Source of the DNA: Candidatus Anderseniibacteriota bacterium
Lineage (GTDB): Bacteria > Patescibacteriota > Andersenbacteria > UBA10190
DNA: 64,000 nucleotides
Assembly: GCA_040876835.1 (NCBI GenBank)
Contig: JBBDOX010000018.1
Span: 82,396 to 146,395 of the forward strand
Direction of reading: 5' to 3'
Under the pieces are notes generated by a model. That model was not told where the DNA came from. It ran no database searches and saw only the letters and a list, made by a program, of their open reading frames with translations. A program made the translations under genes and the position numbers. Below are positions 4,960 through 36,255 of this stretch, piece after piece (position 1 is the first letter of the stretch; each line of letters starts with the position of its first letter).

Positions 4960-6402
4960 ATGAGTATCGCCGCTCGCAGCCTTCATGGAGTGGGTGTTTG
5001 TCTTATCCCTCGGGAGGAAAACGCTTATAAGCCATTGGCTCTCCGTCATAAGCCGCTGGCCTTTGTGTCGGCATTGTTAATTTTAATGAAAGTTGCTGCC
5101 CTGGGAGTCATCGCTCTCACCCCTTCCCAGGCCGAGCTTTCCTCAATTACTACCGCCCGCGTTATCCAGTTCACTAATGCCGAACGCACTAAAGCAGGGC
5201 TTCCACCCCTCACGGCTAACGCCCAACTTTCAGCAGCGGCCAAGGAAAAAGGTGAGCACATGTTAGCTGAGGACTACTTCGCCCACATCTCCCCTTCCGG
5301 CGTCACTCCGTGGTATTGGATCCAGAAGCATGGCTATGTCTATCAGGTGGCCGGAGAGAACCTGGCAATTGATTTTACGGAAGCTGAAGATGTGGTGGCA
5401 GCCTGGATGGCTAGTCCGTCACACAAGGATAATATTCTGCATTCGGCATACACCGAAACGGGGGTAGCTGTTGTGAGTGGCGAATTTCAGGGTGGCACCT
5501 CTATTATCGTGGTTCATATGTTCGGCAAACCTTCTGGCGGACAAGTGGCGGCCCAGCTTTCTTCTCCTACTCCAACCCCTACTCCTGTACCGGCAGCCGC
5601 CCCTGTCAACAGTCCTACAGTAGCTCCTACCCCCACGCCCTCGCCTACTCCGCTACCTACGCCAGTCCCGGACACCAACCCCCCACGGGTGCCCCGCATT
5701 GCCTACAATGGTCAAAACACCACCGTGGGTAATCAGGCTACTTTCCTTCTGGAAGGAGAGCCTAATTCGACTGTTCATGTGCTTATTAACAGTCAACTAC
5801 GTGATAGCGTAACGGTTTCAGCGGAAGGTACTGTGACCAGAGAGCTTAATCTATCCAACCTGCCTGACGGAACCGTTGTGCTGCGGGTATACAGCAGCGA
5901 CAGCGCTGGTAATAAAAGCAGTTTGTCAGACCCCTTCACTGTCACTAAGGATACTTCAGGCCCTGAAGTATCAGCTGACCAGGTGCGGCTGGTTATCGCC
6001 CCCCAGTTCGATACTGTCTCAGCCACGCTGCTGCCGTTCCAGGAATCCTTCACTGCCGCTCGTCTAGCGCACGGGAGTACGGAAGTATCGCTTGCTTCGT
6101 CTCCGACGCTCCTGTCGATACACGATCCGGCCATCGTCCACGTGTCTGACGAGAGCGGCAACGAGACTACACTGGAGCTGCCGCTGCTCATCCCGCAGTT
6201 TGAATTTGATTTTAAAGATAGTGAGCTTAAAGCTCCAGCGCGGTTTAGTCGCCTCACTCGAAATATGACTGCCGCCATATTTATCACCACCTTCATTCTC
6301 TTAATTGTCGCTGTTCTGATCCGAGTTCGGATCCAACATCCCGCTTTAATTACTCATGCCTCTTTTGTAGTACTCCTTGCAGCAGCACTCTTTCTGGTGT
6401 AG
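4960..6402 (+). CDS. Surface protein with an N-terminal CAP/SCP (YkwD-like) domain, a Pro/Thr-rich linker, an Ig-like domain and a C-terminal transmembrane anchor.
   Basis: CAP-like segment ...FTNAERTKAGLPPL...HKDNILHSAYTETGVAV. This is followed by a PTPTPTPVP linker and a hydrophobic C-terminus. Confidence 0.6.
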   Translation: MSIAARSLHGVGVCLIPREENAYKPLALRHKPLAFVSALLILMKVAALGVIALTPSQAELSSITTARVIQFTNAERTKAGLPPLTANAQLSAAAKEKGEHMLAEDYFAHISPSGVTPWYWIQKHGYVYQVAGENLAIDFTEAEDVVAAWMASPSHKDNILHSAYTETGVAVVSGEFQGGTSIIVVHMFGKPSGGQVAAQLSSPTPTPTPVPAAAPVNSPTVAPTPTPSPTPLPTPVPDTNPPRVPRIAYNGQNTTVGNQATFLLEGEPNSTVHVLINSQLRDSVTVSAEGTVTRELNLSNLPDGTVVLRVYSSDSAGNKSSLSDPFTVTKDTSGPEVSADQVRLVIAPQFDTVSATLLPFQESFTAARLAHGSTEVSLASSPTLLSIHDPAIVHVSDESGNETTLELPLLIPQFEFDFKDSELKAPARFSRLTRNMTAAIFITTFILLIVAVLIRVRIQHPALITHASFVVLLAAALFLV

Positions 6403-29550: not shown

Positions 29551-31278
29551 TTAAATACTCGGTCCTACGTCCTCATTTGTAGTTCCTGGAGGAGCAACCA
29601 AGCGTATGTAGGAAAATGGAATAACTACTCCCCCCGTCTCATTACTCCACTGCACTGTAGCGATAAAAGGATTGATTTCTCTTCTCTGTTTGAGCCTGTA
29701 TTCTGCTATATGATCAACCTCATCCGGATTTCTCGGGAATATATACTTAACTATACCTTCTCTGCCATCGCTTGGATTAATGACGCGTTGCCCATTCCAC
29801 TTTCTCTGTGCTTTTGCAAGGAAAGCTGCCCTCCCAAACTTATTATCCGGCACATTCTTAGTTCCGTTACCTTTCAAGATGAAACTAATCATTCTAGAAC
29901 TAAGTTTCTTCGTAGGTGGAATATCTACACCGTACCCCGTGAGAAACGCTTCCTGTTTCTTGGTCGGTCGCATTGTTTCCGGCAACTGTTTTTTACCGGG
30001 AGATGCTTTTTCTCTTTCTTTTCTTCTTTTTTCGGCCTTTTCTTTTTTTGCCTGAGCCTCCTTAGCCTGAAGCTCCTCCACCCTTTTACGTTCCTCTTCT
30101 GGATTTTCTCGGAGCGCTCTCCTTTCCATAAATCGCTTGCGCGTTTCATTGAAGAGTTCTTTAATCCGAATTACTCCGCCTGAACTTTCTATAGCTTCCC
30201 GAAAAGATTTAAATCGTAATGGGCTTTCTGCTGGCTGAACGGCTACAGGGCTCTCATATTTGCGACTAGAAGTTTCGTTCGTAAGTTTGGGAATAAAAGT
30301 GTCGGAAGGGAGTTTGTAAATACAAACTGGTTTTTCTAGTCGGTCCGCGACTGATTTGTCAACCTCTAAGATAAGTCTTTGTTCCCCTCTGTCCCCATAG
30401 GATTCGTAATTTATTTTGAACTGAAAATTCTCTTCAAAGCGACTCCGTATAAGTCTGCGCGCAGCTGCGTGTGCGATATCCTCTGATGCCCACACACGTA
30501 AATTTTTATCGTTGGTGCGAATACTATATTCCCGATGCGGCTTTATTTCTTTTAGGCTTGTTTTCAAGCTTGCATGGTAAAGGAAAGGCGGCTTTTCAGC
30601 TTTTTCTGGACTTGATACCTCTTCAAAATTCTTATGCGTGTTTGAACTCTGTTTTTTCTGATCACCAACCAGCTTCCATTCATATTGGGTAACCTTGTCT
30701 GGTTCCAAATTTTGATGCCTATATCCAGTCGGGGTTCCTAATTTATCTAAGTTAATATTTTCAGAGGTACACCCTACTACATACTCGTGGTAGTGAATCA
30801 AATCTCTAAGTCCAGGATATTTCCAGCCATCTTCTGGCCTGTATTCCTTATCGTATTGCCGAGGATGCTTTAACGTGCTTGGATTTACATTTACTATCCC
30901 CGCCTCCGTTAAGGCTTTCATCGCCGCCTGTGCTGCGCTTTCTCCCTCTTGTATCCGCTTACCTATTTCTGTATGCTTCTCGTCTTCAGTATCGCCATGC
31001 AAGACTCTCTTCGCTTCAACTAACTTCCAAAGACTTCCTTTGTCATCGGTATATTGAATATCAACAAGAGCAACTGATACTTCTCGTACTAGCTCTCCTT
31101 CTTTCTCGACGAGAGCTGCATACCCCGCTTCAACTTCTCTCTCAAGATCTTTAAGGGTTTGGGCTGCGGGATATTCTTCCGATCCCCATCTTTGGTAAGG
31201 AATATTATATTTATCAAGCAGCTCTCTGACACTTGGTAAATTTTCAGGATTGTTAATCCTTGGTTCTCTTTCTGACAT
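29551..31278 (-). CDS. Large hypothetical protein (575 aa) with a Lys/Glu-rich coiled-coil stretch.
   Basis: Complete ORF containing KRVEELQAKEAQAKKEKAEKRRKEREK. No catalytic motif recognised. It lies immediately 3' of tRNA-Trp. Confidence 0.5.
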   Translation of the reverse strand: MSEREPRINNPENLPSVRELLDKYNIPYQRWGSEEYPAAQTLKDLEREVEAGYAALVEKEGELVREVSVALVDIQYTDDKGSLWKLVEAKRVLHGDTEDEKHTEIGKRIQEGESAAQAAMKALTEAGIVNVNPSTLKHPRQYDKEYRPEDGWKYPGLRDLIHYHEYVVGCTSENINLDKLGTPTGYRHQNLEPDKVTQYEWKLVGDQKKQSSNTHKNFEEVSSPEKAEKPPFLYHASLKTSLKEIKPHREYSIRTNDKNLRVWASEDIAHAAARRLIRSRFEENFQFKINYESYGDRGEQRLILEVDKSVADRLEKPVCIYKLPSDTFIPKLTNETSSRKYESPVAVQPAESPLRFKSFREAIESSGGVIRIKELFNETRKRFMERRALRENPEEERKRVEELQAKEAQAKKEKAEKRRKEREKASPGKKQLPETMRPTKKQEAFLTGYGVDIPPTKKLSSRMISFILKGNGTKNVPDNKFGRAAFLAKAQRKWNGQRVINPSDGREGIVKYIFPRNPDEVDHIAEYRLKQRREINPFIATVQWSNETGGVVIPFSYIRLVAPPGTTNEDVGPSI

Positions 31279-31316: not shown

Positions 31317-31390
31317 TGGCAGGGGTGGAGAGAATCGAACTCCCGCTATCCGCTTTGGAGGCGGATGTCATGCCACTAGACCACACCCCC
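31317..31390 (-). tRNA. tRNA-Trp (anticodon CCA), with CCA encoded.
   Basis: Cloverleaf folds by hand. Anticodon stem TCCGC/GCGGA with loop CTCCAAA, T-arm GGGAG-TTCGATT-CTCTC, acceptor GGGGGTG/CACCCCT with a G1:U72 wobble. Confidence 0.8.
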
Positions 31391-33240: not shown

Positions 33241-33312
33241 GCCGATGTAGCTCAGTGGTAGAGCATTCCCATGGTAAGGGAAAGGCCGCGGGTCCGATTC
33301 CCGCCATCGGCT
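33241..33312 (+). tRNA. tRNA-Thr (anticodon GGU).
   Basis: Acceptor GCCGATG/CATCGGC, D-arm GCTCAGTGGTAGAGC, anticodon loop ATGGTAA. The T-loop reads TCCGATT, with C at position 55. Confidence 0.75.
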
Positions 33313-33563
33313 CATTCAATTAGTGCGAAACGCGAAATCGCCTTTCCGTCTACCTCAACTTTTGCATTCCAATCGCTATACGTTCGCGCCCAGACTGTAT
33401 TGTTATGTTGTGGACTGCGGTAGATAACAAGCGGCTCGAGGGTGTCTTCCTTCACAGCTAAGCCCATTACTTCATATTCTCCGCTTTTGTAGTGCGTATA
33501 CCACTGCCCGACTTTAACTGGGAGTTCAGTAAGCGCTGCTTGAGCTTCATCCTTATCACTCAT
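33312..33563 (-). CDS. DUF1653 family protein.
   Basis: ...YTHYKSGEYEVMGLA...LVIYRS... matches the DUF1653 pattern. 83 aa. Confidence 0.55.
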   Translation of the reverse strand: MSDKDEAQAALTELPVKVGQWYTHYKSGEYEVMGLAVKEDTLEPLVIYRSPQHNNTVWARTYSDWNAKVEVDGKAISRFALIE

Positions 33564-34636
33564 CGCTTCGCCAGAACTTCATCAAGTTCGGCTTTCTTAG
33601 CGGCAATATCAGACTGAGCGAAATGTTCTCGTACCGGAGAGAGAAGTTCAATGAGTTCCTTGGAGACGGTAGATTTTAAATCCATCGGGTGCACGTCTCC
33701 AGCTGCGTAAGCTTTTTCCAGCTCCTCATAGTTAGTGAACTCTACATTGCCGCCATGTTCTTCTTTGCGTTCAATACGAAACGGCTGGCTGCGATTCCAG
33801 AAAAGAATATTCTTAATCCAGTTCAGGATCGGATTATGCTCTGTCTCTTTTTCCGGAGCAAAGGCTTTCTTTATCTTTCGTTCAATGTCAGCTGGATCAT
33901 CATGCACGAAGATAGCTGAGTCAGGATCTGACTTGCTCATCTTATCTTCCTTACTCTTCCCGTTCAGACTTTGAAGGAGTGGGTGGTGGAGGGCAATTGG
34001 TTTTGGCTGGTCGGGTCGAATCTTGTGGGCCACGTCCCTCATTACTACATGAGCTTTGCGCTGATCCATACCAGCGTGGGCGATGTCGATGTTTTGATAG
34101 AAAATGTCAGCAGCTTGCATGGCAGGATACATCGTCCGGGCATAGTCGACGTCTTCCCCGGCGGCTTTACCGGTAATATCAATACTACGCACGATACGAG
34201 CTAGGGTTGTATGCTGTCCGATGCTTACCACGTCCTTCCAGTATTCAGGAAAATCCCTGGCATACCATTCGCTAGCTAGGCGAAACTCAATATCGTCCGG
34301 GTTACCGCCAACGGCTTTGTAGCTCGCTTTCATAGCTTCCGTAAAATACCCCTGGCCGATTCTGGCTGCCGTCTCTTGTCTACCATCCAGTTTGTTATTA
34401 ATTGCAGAGTGCCAGTCAGCCAGCCACACTGTACATTTGACCCCAAGGTCAGTTAAATCCTTCATGACCAATGAAGTCATGATTCCTGTACCTAAATGAA
34501 CATAGCCGGATATCTCGAAACCGATATAATGGGTTAAGGGAGTTCCGGACGCTATTCGCTCCCGTAGATCTTCTTCAGTGATTACTTCAGCAAGATTATT
34601 AGCTAACCGGTTGATAATTTCGTCTTTTTCTGGCAT
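33560..34636 (-). CDS. tyrS: Tyrosyl-tRNA synthetase, archaeal/eukaryotic type.
   Basis: HIGH-like region ...YIGFEISGYVHLGT, KMSKS, and a C-terminal half closely resembling archaeal TyrRS (...KIKKAF-PE...NPILNWIKNILF...FTNYEELEKAYA-G-VHPMDLK...). The start at 34636 avoids overlap with the tRNA-Thr gene. Confidence 0.75.
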   Translation of the reverse strand: MPEKDEIINRLANNLAEVITEEDLRERIASGTPLTHYIGFEISGYVHLGTGIMTSLVMKDLTDLGVKCTVWLADWHSAINNKLDGRQETAARIGQGYFTEAMKASYKAVGGNPDDIEFRLASEWYARDFPEYWKDVVSIGQHTTLARIVRSIDITGKAAGEDVDYARTMYPAMQAADIFYQNIDIAHAGMDQRKAHVVMRDVAHKIRPDQPKPIALHHPLLQSLNGKSKEDKMSKSDPDSAIFVHDDPADIERKIKKAFAPEKETEHNPILNWIKNILFWNRSQPFRIERKEEHGGNVEFTNYEELEKAYAAGDVHPMDLKSTVSKELIELLSPVREHFAQSDIAAKKAELDEVLAKR

Positions 34637-34679
34637 ACAGACATAATATATATGACTGGTGATAAGTGCCAGTTTATAC

Positions 34680-34755
34680 GCCACCTTAGCTCAGCTGGTA
34701 GAGCAACTCACTTGTAATGAGTAGGTCGTCGGTTCGAATCCGACAGGTGGCTCCA
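34680..34755 (+). tRNA. tRNA-Thr (anticodon UGU), with CCA encoded.
   Basis: Acceptor GCCACCT/AGGTGGC, anticodon loop CTTGTAA, T-arm GTCGG-TTCGAAT-CCGAC. Confidence 0.85.
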
Positions 34756-34827
34756 CCGGGGATGGCAGATCGGCTTATGCAGCGGACTGTAAATCCGCGA
34801 AGGTAGGTTCAACTCCTACTCCCCGGA
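34756..34827 (+). tRNA. tRNA-Tyr (anticodon GUA), class-I-like with a 4-nt variable loop and a C1:G72 pair.
   Basis: Acceptor CCGGGGA/TCCCCGG, anticodon stem GCGGA/TCCGC with loop CTGTAAA, T-arm GTAGG-TTCAACT-CCTAC. There is no long variable arm. It abuts the tRNA-Thr gene with no spacer. Confidence 0.7.
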
Positions 34828-34873
34828 CAAAAAATCGCGAGACAGACATTCGCCATTATTATAAAATAGGATC

Positions 34874-35519: not shown

Positions 35520-35548
35520 AAAGAAAAGCCGCCTTGCAAGAGGCGGGG
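35520..35548 (-). terminator. Hairpin plus T-tract terminator for the GC-rich minus-strand gene.
   Basis: On the minus strand: CCCGCCTCTTGCAAGGCGGC followed by TTTTCTTTT. Confidence 0.4.
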
Positions 35549-35550
35549 TG

Positions 35551-36255
35551 TCAGGCACAAACAAGTTCAGAATCGTAGTCGGCACACACCGAGGAAAGTT
35601 CCGACACTTTGCCCAGCGTATACAGCGGGAATTCGACGGGGGTAAGCCTGTCAATCAGCTTACCAGGAAGTTTCACAGTCATCTTCCGCGATGCCCACTG
35701 TCGACTCGACAGCTGAAGTTCTCCGAACGCTTCCTGATCACCAGAGGCCAGGCGGACCAGCAGCGACTGATGCAAGATCACGGCCGGACGATCAGGGTCG
35801 CCAGGGAAGGCTGGAACATGTGCTCCTGCCTTCTCACAGACCCGAACCAGAATTCGATGGTCAACGGCAAAGAGAGCCGTGCAATTCCGAATGACGAATT
35901 GCTCCACCTCCGCTTTCGTCCGACAGACGTTCAGCTTCGTTCCCCTCTTCGTTCGCCCGCTACCCTTGCGCCTCCCGTTGTTGTAGAAGAAGATCGCGTA
36001 GTAGAGGCCGTCCAGAGGGAAGCCACCGGCCATGCTTTCGTAGCGCTGGAGCTGGTCCGCGTCGACTCGGCACGGACGACTTCCGGCTGCTTTCACCTCA
36101 AGCCCTCGATTTTTCGGGAGCATAAGGTCGCTGCAGTCAGTCGGCTCTGCGGCTCTCCATATTCTCTGAGCCAGCTCCTCGAACACCTTCCCGACGATCC
36201 CCGGCGTCTCCTTACGCCGCGTTCTCTTCCAGAGAGCGTTAGCTGAAGCGCACAA
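35551..36255 (-). CDS. Hypothetical protein (234 aa) in a strongly GC-rich segment. Possible PD-(D/E)xK-type nuclease.
   Basis: The minus-strand frame is protein-like, whereas the overlapping plus frame is Arg/Ser/Pro-rich nonsense. A ...CSDLMLPKNRGLEVKAAG... segment fits a D...EVK (PD-(D/E)xK) pattern. A ribosome-binding site and its own terminator are present. Confidence 0.4.
   Translation of the reverse strand: MCASANALWKRTRRKETPGIVGKVFEELAQRIWRAAEPTDCSDLMLPKNRGLEVKAAGSRPCRVDADQLQRYESMAGGFPLDGLYYAIFFYNNGRRKGSGRTKRGTKLNVCRTKAEVEQFVIRNCTALFAVDHRILVRVCEKAGAHVPAFPGDPDRPAVILHQSLLVRLASGDQEAFGELQLSSRQWASRKMTVKLPGKLIDRLTPVEFPLYTLGKVSELSSVCADYDSELVCA

Follow-up and report, generated by a model that had tools for sequence, protein, structure and literature searches.

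The window analysed here is a 64-kb stretch (64,000 nucleotides) of contig JBBDOX010000018.1 from assembly GCA_040876835.1 of a Candidatus Anderseniibacteriota bacterium. It carries a gene for a tyrosyl-tRNA synthetase (TyrRS) that is archaeal in type and, close to it, a gene for a tRNA-Tyr with anticodon GUA. The original prediction, made from the DNA letters alone, held that synthetase and tRNA had switched together to the archaeal recognition mode in a bacterial genome. Genes encoding DnaE (DNA polymerase III alpha), MurJ, RodA, GatB and a bacterial ThrRS were identified in the window, along with those for RF1, PrmC, L25, EF-Ts, S2, MiaA and YceG, and the TyrRS gene is flanked by bacterial genes at both sides. 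On the basis of these genes, and of the NCBI name of a protein identical to the TyrRS over its full length (100% identity; 'Candidatus Andersenbacteria bacterium', P0001), the source of the window is Candidatus Andersenbacteria, a Candidate Phyla Radiation bacterium (CPR/Patescibacteria). ARAGORN distinguished four tRNA genes in the 64 kb, all confirmed by the Rfam tRNA model (RF00005), and no class Ic synthetase other than the TyrRS was found within the window.

The tRNA-Tyr gene directly follows a tRNA-Thr(UGU) gene, with a spacer of 0 nt: the final A of the encoded CCA end of tRNA-Thr is succeeded by C1 of tRNA-Tyr (34753-34756). This tandem is divergent from the TyrRS gene, and because the two are on opposite strands they do not form an operon. 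The tRNA-Tyr gene had been described as immediately adjacent to the synthetase gene. It is indeed located only 119 nt from the TyrRS start codon, but the tRNA-Thr(UGU) gene, at 43 nt, lies between them and the strands are opposite.

The start codon of TyrRS is the ATG at 34636 and not the end of the mechanically listed open reading frame (ORF; 33560-34684, minus strand). Judging from its sequence, the ORF is intact and looks functional. Both signatures of the catalytic core named in the original prediction are present, the HIGH-type motif as HLGT (residues 47-50) and KMSKS at residues 232-236, and the archaeal character claimed for the C-terminal half was borne out by the alignment of its ...RKIKKAF...NPIL...HPMDLK... 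with ...AKIKKAY...NPIM...HPMDLK of Methanocaldococcus jannaschii TyrRS. The NCBIfam model of archaeal/eukaryal TyrRS (NF006330, PRK08560) matched the protein with 380.6 bits (cut-off 220), whereas the bacterial tyrS model TIGR00234 yielded 104.4 bits, under its cut-off of 113.8; the earlier assignment to the archaeal rather than the bacterial type thus holds. In Pfam, PF00579 alone was detected, spanning nearly the entire protein, and no Pfam match to the S4 domain (PF01479) was obtained. The best match in the PDB is Pyrococcus horikoshii TyrRS (2cyc, 321 bits), and the next one named is that of Aeropyrum pernix (2cya, 250 bits). Eukaryal and M. jannaschii enzymes scored 93-235 bits, against 45 bits for the bacterial TyrRS of Thermus thermophilus, and the strong matches were archaeal or eukaryal TyrRS throughout. 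Identity to a hand-entered sequence of M. jannaschii TyrRS is 36% (BLASTP).

A phylogenetic placement of the enzyme had been proposed as a check, and neighbour-joining trees (200 bootstraps) place the TyrRS of the window and its close relatives (the Andersen clade, defined below) among archaeal sequences and those of the DPANN archaea. The clade is monophyletic with 100% bootstrap, and among the sequences next to it are some that bear the names Pace-, Woese- and Aenigmarchaeota and Diapherotrites. By these sequence comparisons, the protein is a class Ic homodimeric enzyme of archaeal (DPANN-like) ancestry.

Recognition of tRNA-Tyr by TyrRS was for a long time the textbook case of a domain-specific identity rule: bacteria use a G1:C72 pair and a long variable arm (V-arm), while C1:G72 is used elsewhere. 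This rule was expected to block the transfer of the synthetase between domains, and it underlies the use of the M. jannaschii orthogonal pair for genetic-code expansion. The tRNA-Tyr of the window was predicted to carry anticodon GUA, a 4-nt variable loop and C1:G72, all of which were confirmed (ARAGORN isotype Tyr; 56.3 bits with RF00005, gathering score 29; cloverleaf fold). Its acceptor stem, CCGGGGA/UCCCCGG, begins with the pair C1:G72, the discriminator is A73, and the anticodon supplies G34. The variable loop (GAAG) gives the molecule a class I architecture without a V-arm. The D stem has 3 bp and is closed by G13/A22, the anticodon loop reads CUGUAAA and includes A36A37A38, and no CCA end is encoded. 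On sequence grounds, this tRNA carries the archaeal/eukaryal identity set, i.e. C1:G72, A73, G34 and a short variable loop.

In M. jannaschii TyrRS, D286 is the aspartate that binds G34, and Y32, Q155 and D158 are residues of the tyrosine pocket. In the same enzyme R132, R174 and K175 read C1:G72, and H283 stacks on G34 (Tsunoda et al. 2007, PMC1934993). The readers of the first base pair align to R150, R193 and K194 of the window TyrRS, the G34-binding H283 and D286 to H316 and D319, and the pocket residues to Y37, Q174 and D177. None of the eight varies among the 23 clade members that were aligned. The position of M. jannaschii F261 is occupied by His294.

To define the Andersen clade, 27 loci were collected (from one genome and one metagenome scan) in which the TyrRS is at least 61% identical to that of the window; locus L063, on a long contig, was added to them. 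With the window counted and L063 left aside, 20 tRNA-Tyr genes lie beside these synthetase genes and represent 17 distinct sequences. C1:G72, C2:G71 and A73 are kept in all 17. The variable loop measures 4 nt in six of them and 5 nt in the remaining 11, and a V-arm occurs in none. No non-canonical pair was found at the 20 stem pairs of the 17 sequences, and at nine of them both sides have changed in a compensatory manner: pairs 3, 5 and 7 of the acceptor stem, pair 3 of the D stem, pairs 1, 2 and 5 of the anticodon stem and pairs 1 and 3 of the T stem. The first base pair is fixed across the clade while neighbouring pairs co-vary. Such a pattern identifies the clade tRNA-Tyr, as far as sequences can, as working tRNAs under selection. 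Spacers of 1-2 nt separate tRNA-Thr(UGU) from tRNA-Tyr in L002, L003 and L015, and a CCA end is encoded in the tRNA-Tyr of L013, L018 and L020.

In 19 of the 27 loci, as well as in the window and in L063, the tRNA-Tyr gene lies upstream of TyrRS at a distance of 115-1509 nt. Over 28 clade loci, with the window and L063 counted, 20 have tRNA-Tyr no more than 1.5 kb from TyrRS. Most of the loci without it end too near TyrRS to be judged; only in L012 and L017 is the gene genuinely missing within 2.7-4 kb of TyrRS. The archaeal-type TyrRS/tRNA-Tyr trait is clade-wide, and the linkage of the two genes is conserved in the Andersen clade.

The enzyme and the tRNA match one another, and a bacterial partner would suit neither of them, since the tRNA has C1:G72, A73 and G34 but no V-arm and the enzyme has no S4 domain, the part of bacterial TyrRS that binds the V-arm. 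Both partners are under selection, and the S4 domain and the V-arm have both been lost. We consider it very probable that the tyrosine-charging system of Andersenbacteria was replaced by a matched TyrRS/tRNA-Tyr pair of archaeal identity. The proposed co-switch is thus supported by the type of the enzyme, its recognition residues, the identity set of the tRNA and the bacterial host, and we infer that the pair is the sole tyrosine system of the cell. The dimeric TyrRS would bind tRNA-Tyr across its subunits, as in the M. jannaschii complex (1J1U), and would charge it with tyrosine. By analogy with the contacts in that complex, C1:G72 would be read via R150, R193 and K194, and G34 via H316 and D319. 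A CCA-adding enzyme would be needed to complete the tRNA-Tyr, and a single RNase P cut at its C1 would also free the preceding tRNA-Thr with its encoded CCA end.

Features of the conserved region are summarized in the following table.

Features of the TyrRS locus (positions are those of the 64-kb window)
Feature	Position	Strand	Basis or remark
Archaeal-type TyrRS, 358 aa	33560..34636	-	NF006330, PF00579, PDB 2cyc
tRNA-Tyr(GUA), 72 nt	34756..34827	+	Rfam; ARAGORN gives 34756-34828
tRNA-Thr(UGU), CCA encoded	34680..34755	+	ARAGORN, Rfam 74.4 bits
Divergent intergenic gap, 43 bp	34637..34679		Between TyrRS and the tRNA tandem
DUF1653 gene, 83 aa	33312..33563	-	PF07866, 66.6 bits
tRNA-Thr(GGU)	33241..33313	+	ARAGORN; conserved downstream neighbour of TyrRS
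Conserved protein of no known family, 515 aa	31677..33224	-	Between tRNA-Thr(GGU) and tRNA-Trp
tRNA-Trp(CCA)	31317..31390	-	ARAGORN; end of the conserved block

Across the clade the order of the block, read in the orientation of TyrRS, is tRNA-Tyr (opposite strand), tRNA-Thr(UGU), TyrRS, an optional DUF1653 gene, tRNA-Thr(GGU), the gene for the protein of about 515 aa and tRNA-Trp; the orientation of tRNA-Thr(UGU) is flipped in some members. In the window the start of the DUF1653 gene overlaps the stop of TyrRS by 4 nt, and the two genes are probably co-transcribed. A DUF1653 homologue directly after TyrRS was found only in a sub-clade composed of the window, L001/L005, L008, L010, L015, L017 and L063. 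In 14 related loci tRNA-Thr(GGU) is placed 16-370 nt after TyrRS. The 515-aa protein, for which Pfam and NCBIfam gave no match, has counterparts with 28-34% identity at the same position in 12 related loci (tblastn), and it possesses a hydrophobic N-terminal segment.

Scanning for promoters and terminators around TyrRS gave weak consensus matches only. One of them, in the divergent gap, is a weak sigma-70-like match (CTGGCA-16-TATATT, 34672-34645, minus strand, 9/12), which comes from a consensus scan only and is not evidence of function. Neither a T-box nor any other Rfam regulatory RNA was found near TyrRS in the Rfam search. A search around TyrRS in the window for scars of integration, in the form of repeats 14 nt or longer and either direct or inverted, gave none. 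In L063 (7618-9898), genes for a serine recombinase and a PD-(D/E)XK nuclease have been inserted into the tRNA cluster: a 576-aa Resolvase-family (large serine recombinase) gene has its end within the 3′ end of tRNA-Tyr or directly abutting it, and a PDDEXK_5 nuclease gene is situated between tRNA-Tyr and tRNA-Thr(UGU). The site therefore tolerates insertions, and the tRNA cluster is an insertion hotspot in the clade.

The tRNA-Trp at the end of the block has G1-U72 and the discriminator G73 (...CACCCCU-G in the Rfam alignment). In tRNA-Trp, G73 is the bacterial and A73 the archaeal discriminator (Mukai et al. 2017, PMC5370408). No TrpRS-A, the archaeal-type tryptophanyl enzyme, was found in the window. 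In this genome region the tyrosine system alone has switched, and tRNA-Trp keeps its bacterial identity. The genes tuf, secE and nusG, which would mark the region as the ancestral tRNA-tuf cluster, were sought beside tRNA-Trp, and none was found. Two further parts of the window are worth recording. Directly downstream of tRNA-Trp lies a 575-aa ORF (29551-31278, minus strand) that matches no family and whose centre is rich in lysine and glutamate. At 35548-36255, ORFs of 232 aa (plus strand) and 234 aa (minus strand) overlap almost fully, and the latter has no Pfam match.

Linkage of TyrRS and tRNA-Tyr outside the clade was examined in two samples. The first consisted of 31 metagenome loci with a TyrRS 40-47% identical to that of the window. 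These are mostly archaeal, and their origin was checked via neighbouring genes in three cases (EF-1alpha beside TyrRS in L039, archaeal GluRS in L031 and L024). None of the 31 has an adjacent tRNA-Tyr; intron-aware ARAGORN gave a single doubtful call, in L044, at a distance of 3.7 kb. For the wider sample, 50%-identity representatives of the TyrRS family were taken and their gene contexts were read. The Daviesbacteria loci (L064-L069) have TyrRS in the context of F-ATPase, RecG, L32 and NusB, with no tRNA-Tyr within 6 kb, and in L071, from a bacterium whose genes include those for GGDEF, Crp and type I restriction, there is no tRNA-Tyr near TyrRS.

Two other bacterial lineages are linked. In L070 (5723-7134), a high-GC contig carrying FabH, AccA/AccD and SbcD, TyrRS is 51% identical to that of the window, and 200 nt upstream of it on the same strand there is a 74-nt tRNA-Tyr that has C1:G72 plus A73 and no V-arm. 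The same contig (GCA_014874355.1) also encodes a molybdopterin oxidoreductase and looks non-CPR. A 27-nt inverted repeat with 96% complementarity (5823-5849 / 5973-5999) is present there between tRNA-Tyr and TyrRS, and it overlaps with the beginning of the long stop-to-stop frame in which TyrRS lies. A CPR-like contig (L072/L073) with MurT/GatD, RecG and BacA has a C1:G72 tRNA-Tyr devoid of a V-arm 670 nt upstream of TyrRS, again on the same strand. Linkage was thus seen in three of the five bacterial lineages sampled.

Among the DPANN relatives, four lineages (L023, L081/82, L083/84 and L085/86) have no TyrRS/tRNA-Tyr linkage. In the complete genome of a Woesearchaeote (L078, CP066683.1), an intron-containing tRNA (5827-5953; Rfam 57.7 bits) lies 46 nt upstream of TyrRS and on its strand; a tRNA of the same type occurs in L079 and L080. 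The anticodon loop of the L078 tRNA holds a 55-nt insertion, and since CUGUA is present at each junction, the position of this insertion is ambiguous. Splicing at the canonical 37/38 site gives the loop CUGUAGA (anticodon GUA) and a perfect cloverleaf, and the acceptor stem, CUCCCUG/CAGGGAG followed by A73, begins with C1:G72. ARAGORN labelled this tRNA Asn(gtt); we rejected the label, as the 37/38 splice produces GUA and the combination of C1:G72 and A73 marks tyrosine identity. The molecule would accordingly seem, from its sequence, to be a tRNA-Tyr. Chance proximity of the two genes in a genome of about 1 Mb is, by our estimate, about 0.3% per lineage, a fraction of a percent, and hence the linkage is not random.

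Three loci stand apart. L060 (10001-14644), L061 and L062 contain a DPANN-like archaeal-type TyrRS, an overlapping radical SAM gene, an amidohydrolase gene and, 2.3 kb from the first, an S4-containing TyrRS of bacterial type; no tRNA-Tyr was found near TyrRS in these loci. Their protein is labelled 'Caldisericia bacterium' by NCBI, but this taxonomic label may be wrong, since the neighbouring genes (TrmB, Dus) resemble those of the DPANN locus L083.

Bins of CPR and DPANN organisms, which co-occur, can be cross-contaminated, a caveat raised by Mukai et al. (PMC5370408), and an archaeal fragment of DPANN origin mis-assembled or mis-binned into a bacterial contig would mimic the observed arrangement. 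We regard the chance of this as negligible. The same block, its tRNA-Trp with G73 included, recurs in 27 more loci that stem from numerous unrelated metagenomes and assemblies, some of the contigs reach 0.4-0.85 Mb, and bacterial genes enclose TyrRS in the window; a chimeric assembly was rejected on account of the synteny common to these 27 independent loci. It is also improbable, though less decidedly so, that the pair is an auxiliary one, i.e. an additional, orthogonal system for tyrosine (serving, for example, resistance, stress or the making of a specialised product) that works beside a normal bacterial TyrRS and tRNA-Tyr encoded outside the window. CPR genomes are small and seldom keep duplicate synthetases, and a second class Ic synthetase was found neither in the window nor, L060 excepted, in the 218 kb of related loci examined. 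The tRNA with C1:G72 sits at the housekeeping thrU-tyrU position, and in each of the sampled clade members both genes are conserved and subject to purifying selection. What speaks for an auxiliary role is the presence of both TyrRS types in L060-L062 and the coexistence of TrpRS-A with the bacterial enzyme reported for Beckwithbacteria (PMC5370408).

Replacement by a matched pair leaves two main accounts of the history of the tRNA. In the one that we place slightly ahead, TyrRS would have been acquired from a DPANN-like archaeon and the resident tRNA-Tyr of the thrU-tyrU unit would then have been remodelled in place, by a flip of the 1:72 pair and loss of the V-arm. In bacterial tRNA-Tyr, A36A37A38 is the motif modified by MiaA; the tRNA-Tyr of the window has this motif, and MiaA is encoded in the window. 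The gene directly follows tRNA-Thr(UGU), the position of Escherichia coli tyrU after thrU. The 3-bp D stem with R13/A22 is that of E. coli tyrU, whereas the tRNAs of M. jannaschii and the Woesearchaeote have a Watson-Crick 13:22 pair. According to Mukai et al. (PMC5370408), many C1-G72 tRNA-Tyr of other CPR groups still retain the V-arm, which was taken as descent from bacterial tRNA-Tyr.

Several observations limit this account or weigh against it. Overall identity of the tRNA-Tyr is 60-68% to E. coli tyrU and 65-70% to the M. jannaschii tRNA (the latter entered by hand), values too close to tell the two ancestries apart. The deeper branches of the TyrRS trees have at most 50% bootstrap, too little to place the sister group or to order the bacterial lineages and DPANN. 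The recurrence of linkage in other bacteria and in one Woesearchaeote fits co-transfer better than remodelling. According to this competing account, TyrRS and its C1:G72 tRNA-Tyr entered bacteria as a linked module from a DPANN-like archaeon, or moved from bacterium to bacterium, and the tRNA-Tyr is foreign rather than a remodelled tyrU; the nature of the pair would be the same. We give it a substantial, though minority, share of the probability. The intron-containing tRNA of L078, with C1:G72, A73 and CUGUA, and the lone tRNA-Tyr genes of L070 and L072/L073 all lie upstream of TyrRS on its strand, and these cases, the linked loci of the Andersen clade and the low expectation for chance proximity argue for it. 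In the Andersen clade, by contrast, the tRNA-Tyr is on the opposite strand and at the bacterial tyrU position, and its D arm and A37 are bacterial-like. Linkage is also missing from four further DPANN lineages and some 33 further archaeal loci (with L044 as a doubtful exception), from Daviesbacteria and from L071; there are no repeat scars around the TyrRS of the window, and the TyrRS tree gives no proof that the linked lineages are a single clade. A hybrid history is possible as well, with a bacterial tRNA remodelled beside the incoming TyrRS and the linked pair spreading later between bacteria.

The occurrence of linkage in at least one DPANN archaeon and at least three deep bacterial lineages (Andersenbacteria, the CPR-like L072 and the high-GC L070) leads us to suggest, tentatively and as something that may well prove otherwise, that TyrRS and C1:G72 tRNA-Tyr behave as a physically linked module of two genes that is sufficient in itself, a cassette of the 'orthogonal pair' kind occurring in nature. 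If so, transfer of the two genes together would account for the way in which a synthetase whose identity rule is incompatible crosses between domains, and the phenomenon would extend beyond CPR, as L070 hints for the swap itself.

Archaea/eukarya-type TyrRS with C1-G72 tRNA-Tyr was reported in CPR by Mukai, Reynolds, Crnkovic and Soll (2017, Life 7:8, PMC5370408). In that paper, the groups given are Parcubacteria, Microgenomates, Dojkabacteria and Katanobacteria, Andersenbacteria is named among the major groups, and a DPANN origin of the CPR TyrRS is inferred. The co-switch in Andersenbacteria is thus already known, and our literature search found no later paper treating the archaeal-type TyrRS/tRNA-Tyr of CPR. 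That tRNA identity is not hard-wired to domain was a point made in 2017, and the window is a clean further example of such rule-breaking in CPR. The possible addition is that the linkage is conserved and turns up again in other bacteria and a DPANN archaeon, which bears on how a swap can proceed without a lethal intermediate. TyrRS/tRNA-Tyr linkage goes unmentioned in the text of the paper by Mukai et al.: 'adjacent' occurs 0 times in it and 'operon' is used solely for TrpRS-A. Natural pairs adapted to a bacterial host, with A37 and a bacterial-like D arm, are candidate orthogonal pairs.

The Andersen-clade system represents the same phenomenon as the CPR systems described in that paper, but the V-arm, often kept there, is gone in all 17 clade sequences. 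With the enzymes of M. jannaschii (1J1U) and P. horikoshii (2CYC) the window TyrRS shares the fold family, the motifs, the lack of S4 and the conserved residues for C1:G72 and G34. The tRNA resembles that of M. jannaschii in C1:G72, A73 and the short variable loop; M. jannaschii tRNA-Tyr has G37 and a 4-bp D stem, whereas that of the window has A37 and a 3-bp D stem with G13/A22, and the host here is a bacterium.

The closest parallel in gene order is the E. coli cluster thrU-tyrU-glyT-thrT-tufB, and the bacterial arrangement claimed in the original prediction holds in part: tRNA-Tyr(GUA) comes straight after tRNA-Thr(UGU), both on one strand, with tRNA-Thr(GGU) not far off, but glyT, thrT in its order and tufB have not been kept. 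There is no tRNA-Gly among the four tRNAs of the window and no EF-Tu among the ORFs scanned; TyrRS and DUF1653 separate the two tRNA-Thr genes, with tRNA-Thr(GGU) lying beyond TyrRS. The spacer between tRNA-Thr and tRNA-Tyr, absent here, has 8 nt in E. coli, and E. coli tRNA-Tyr (85 nt, G1:C72, V-arm) differs from the 72-nt tRNA with C1:G72 in the window. Archaeal-identity tRNA linked to an archaeal-type class Ic synthetase is likewise found in CPR in the tRNA-Trp(A73)/ORF1/TrpRS-A operons of Microgenomates (PMC5370408). That pair has the additional ORF1 and coexists with a bacterial TrpRS, while the window has neither TrpRS-A nor a tRNA-Trp other than the one that keeps G73.

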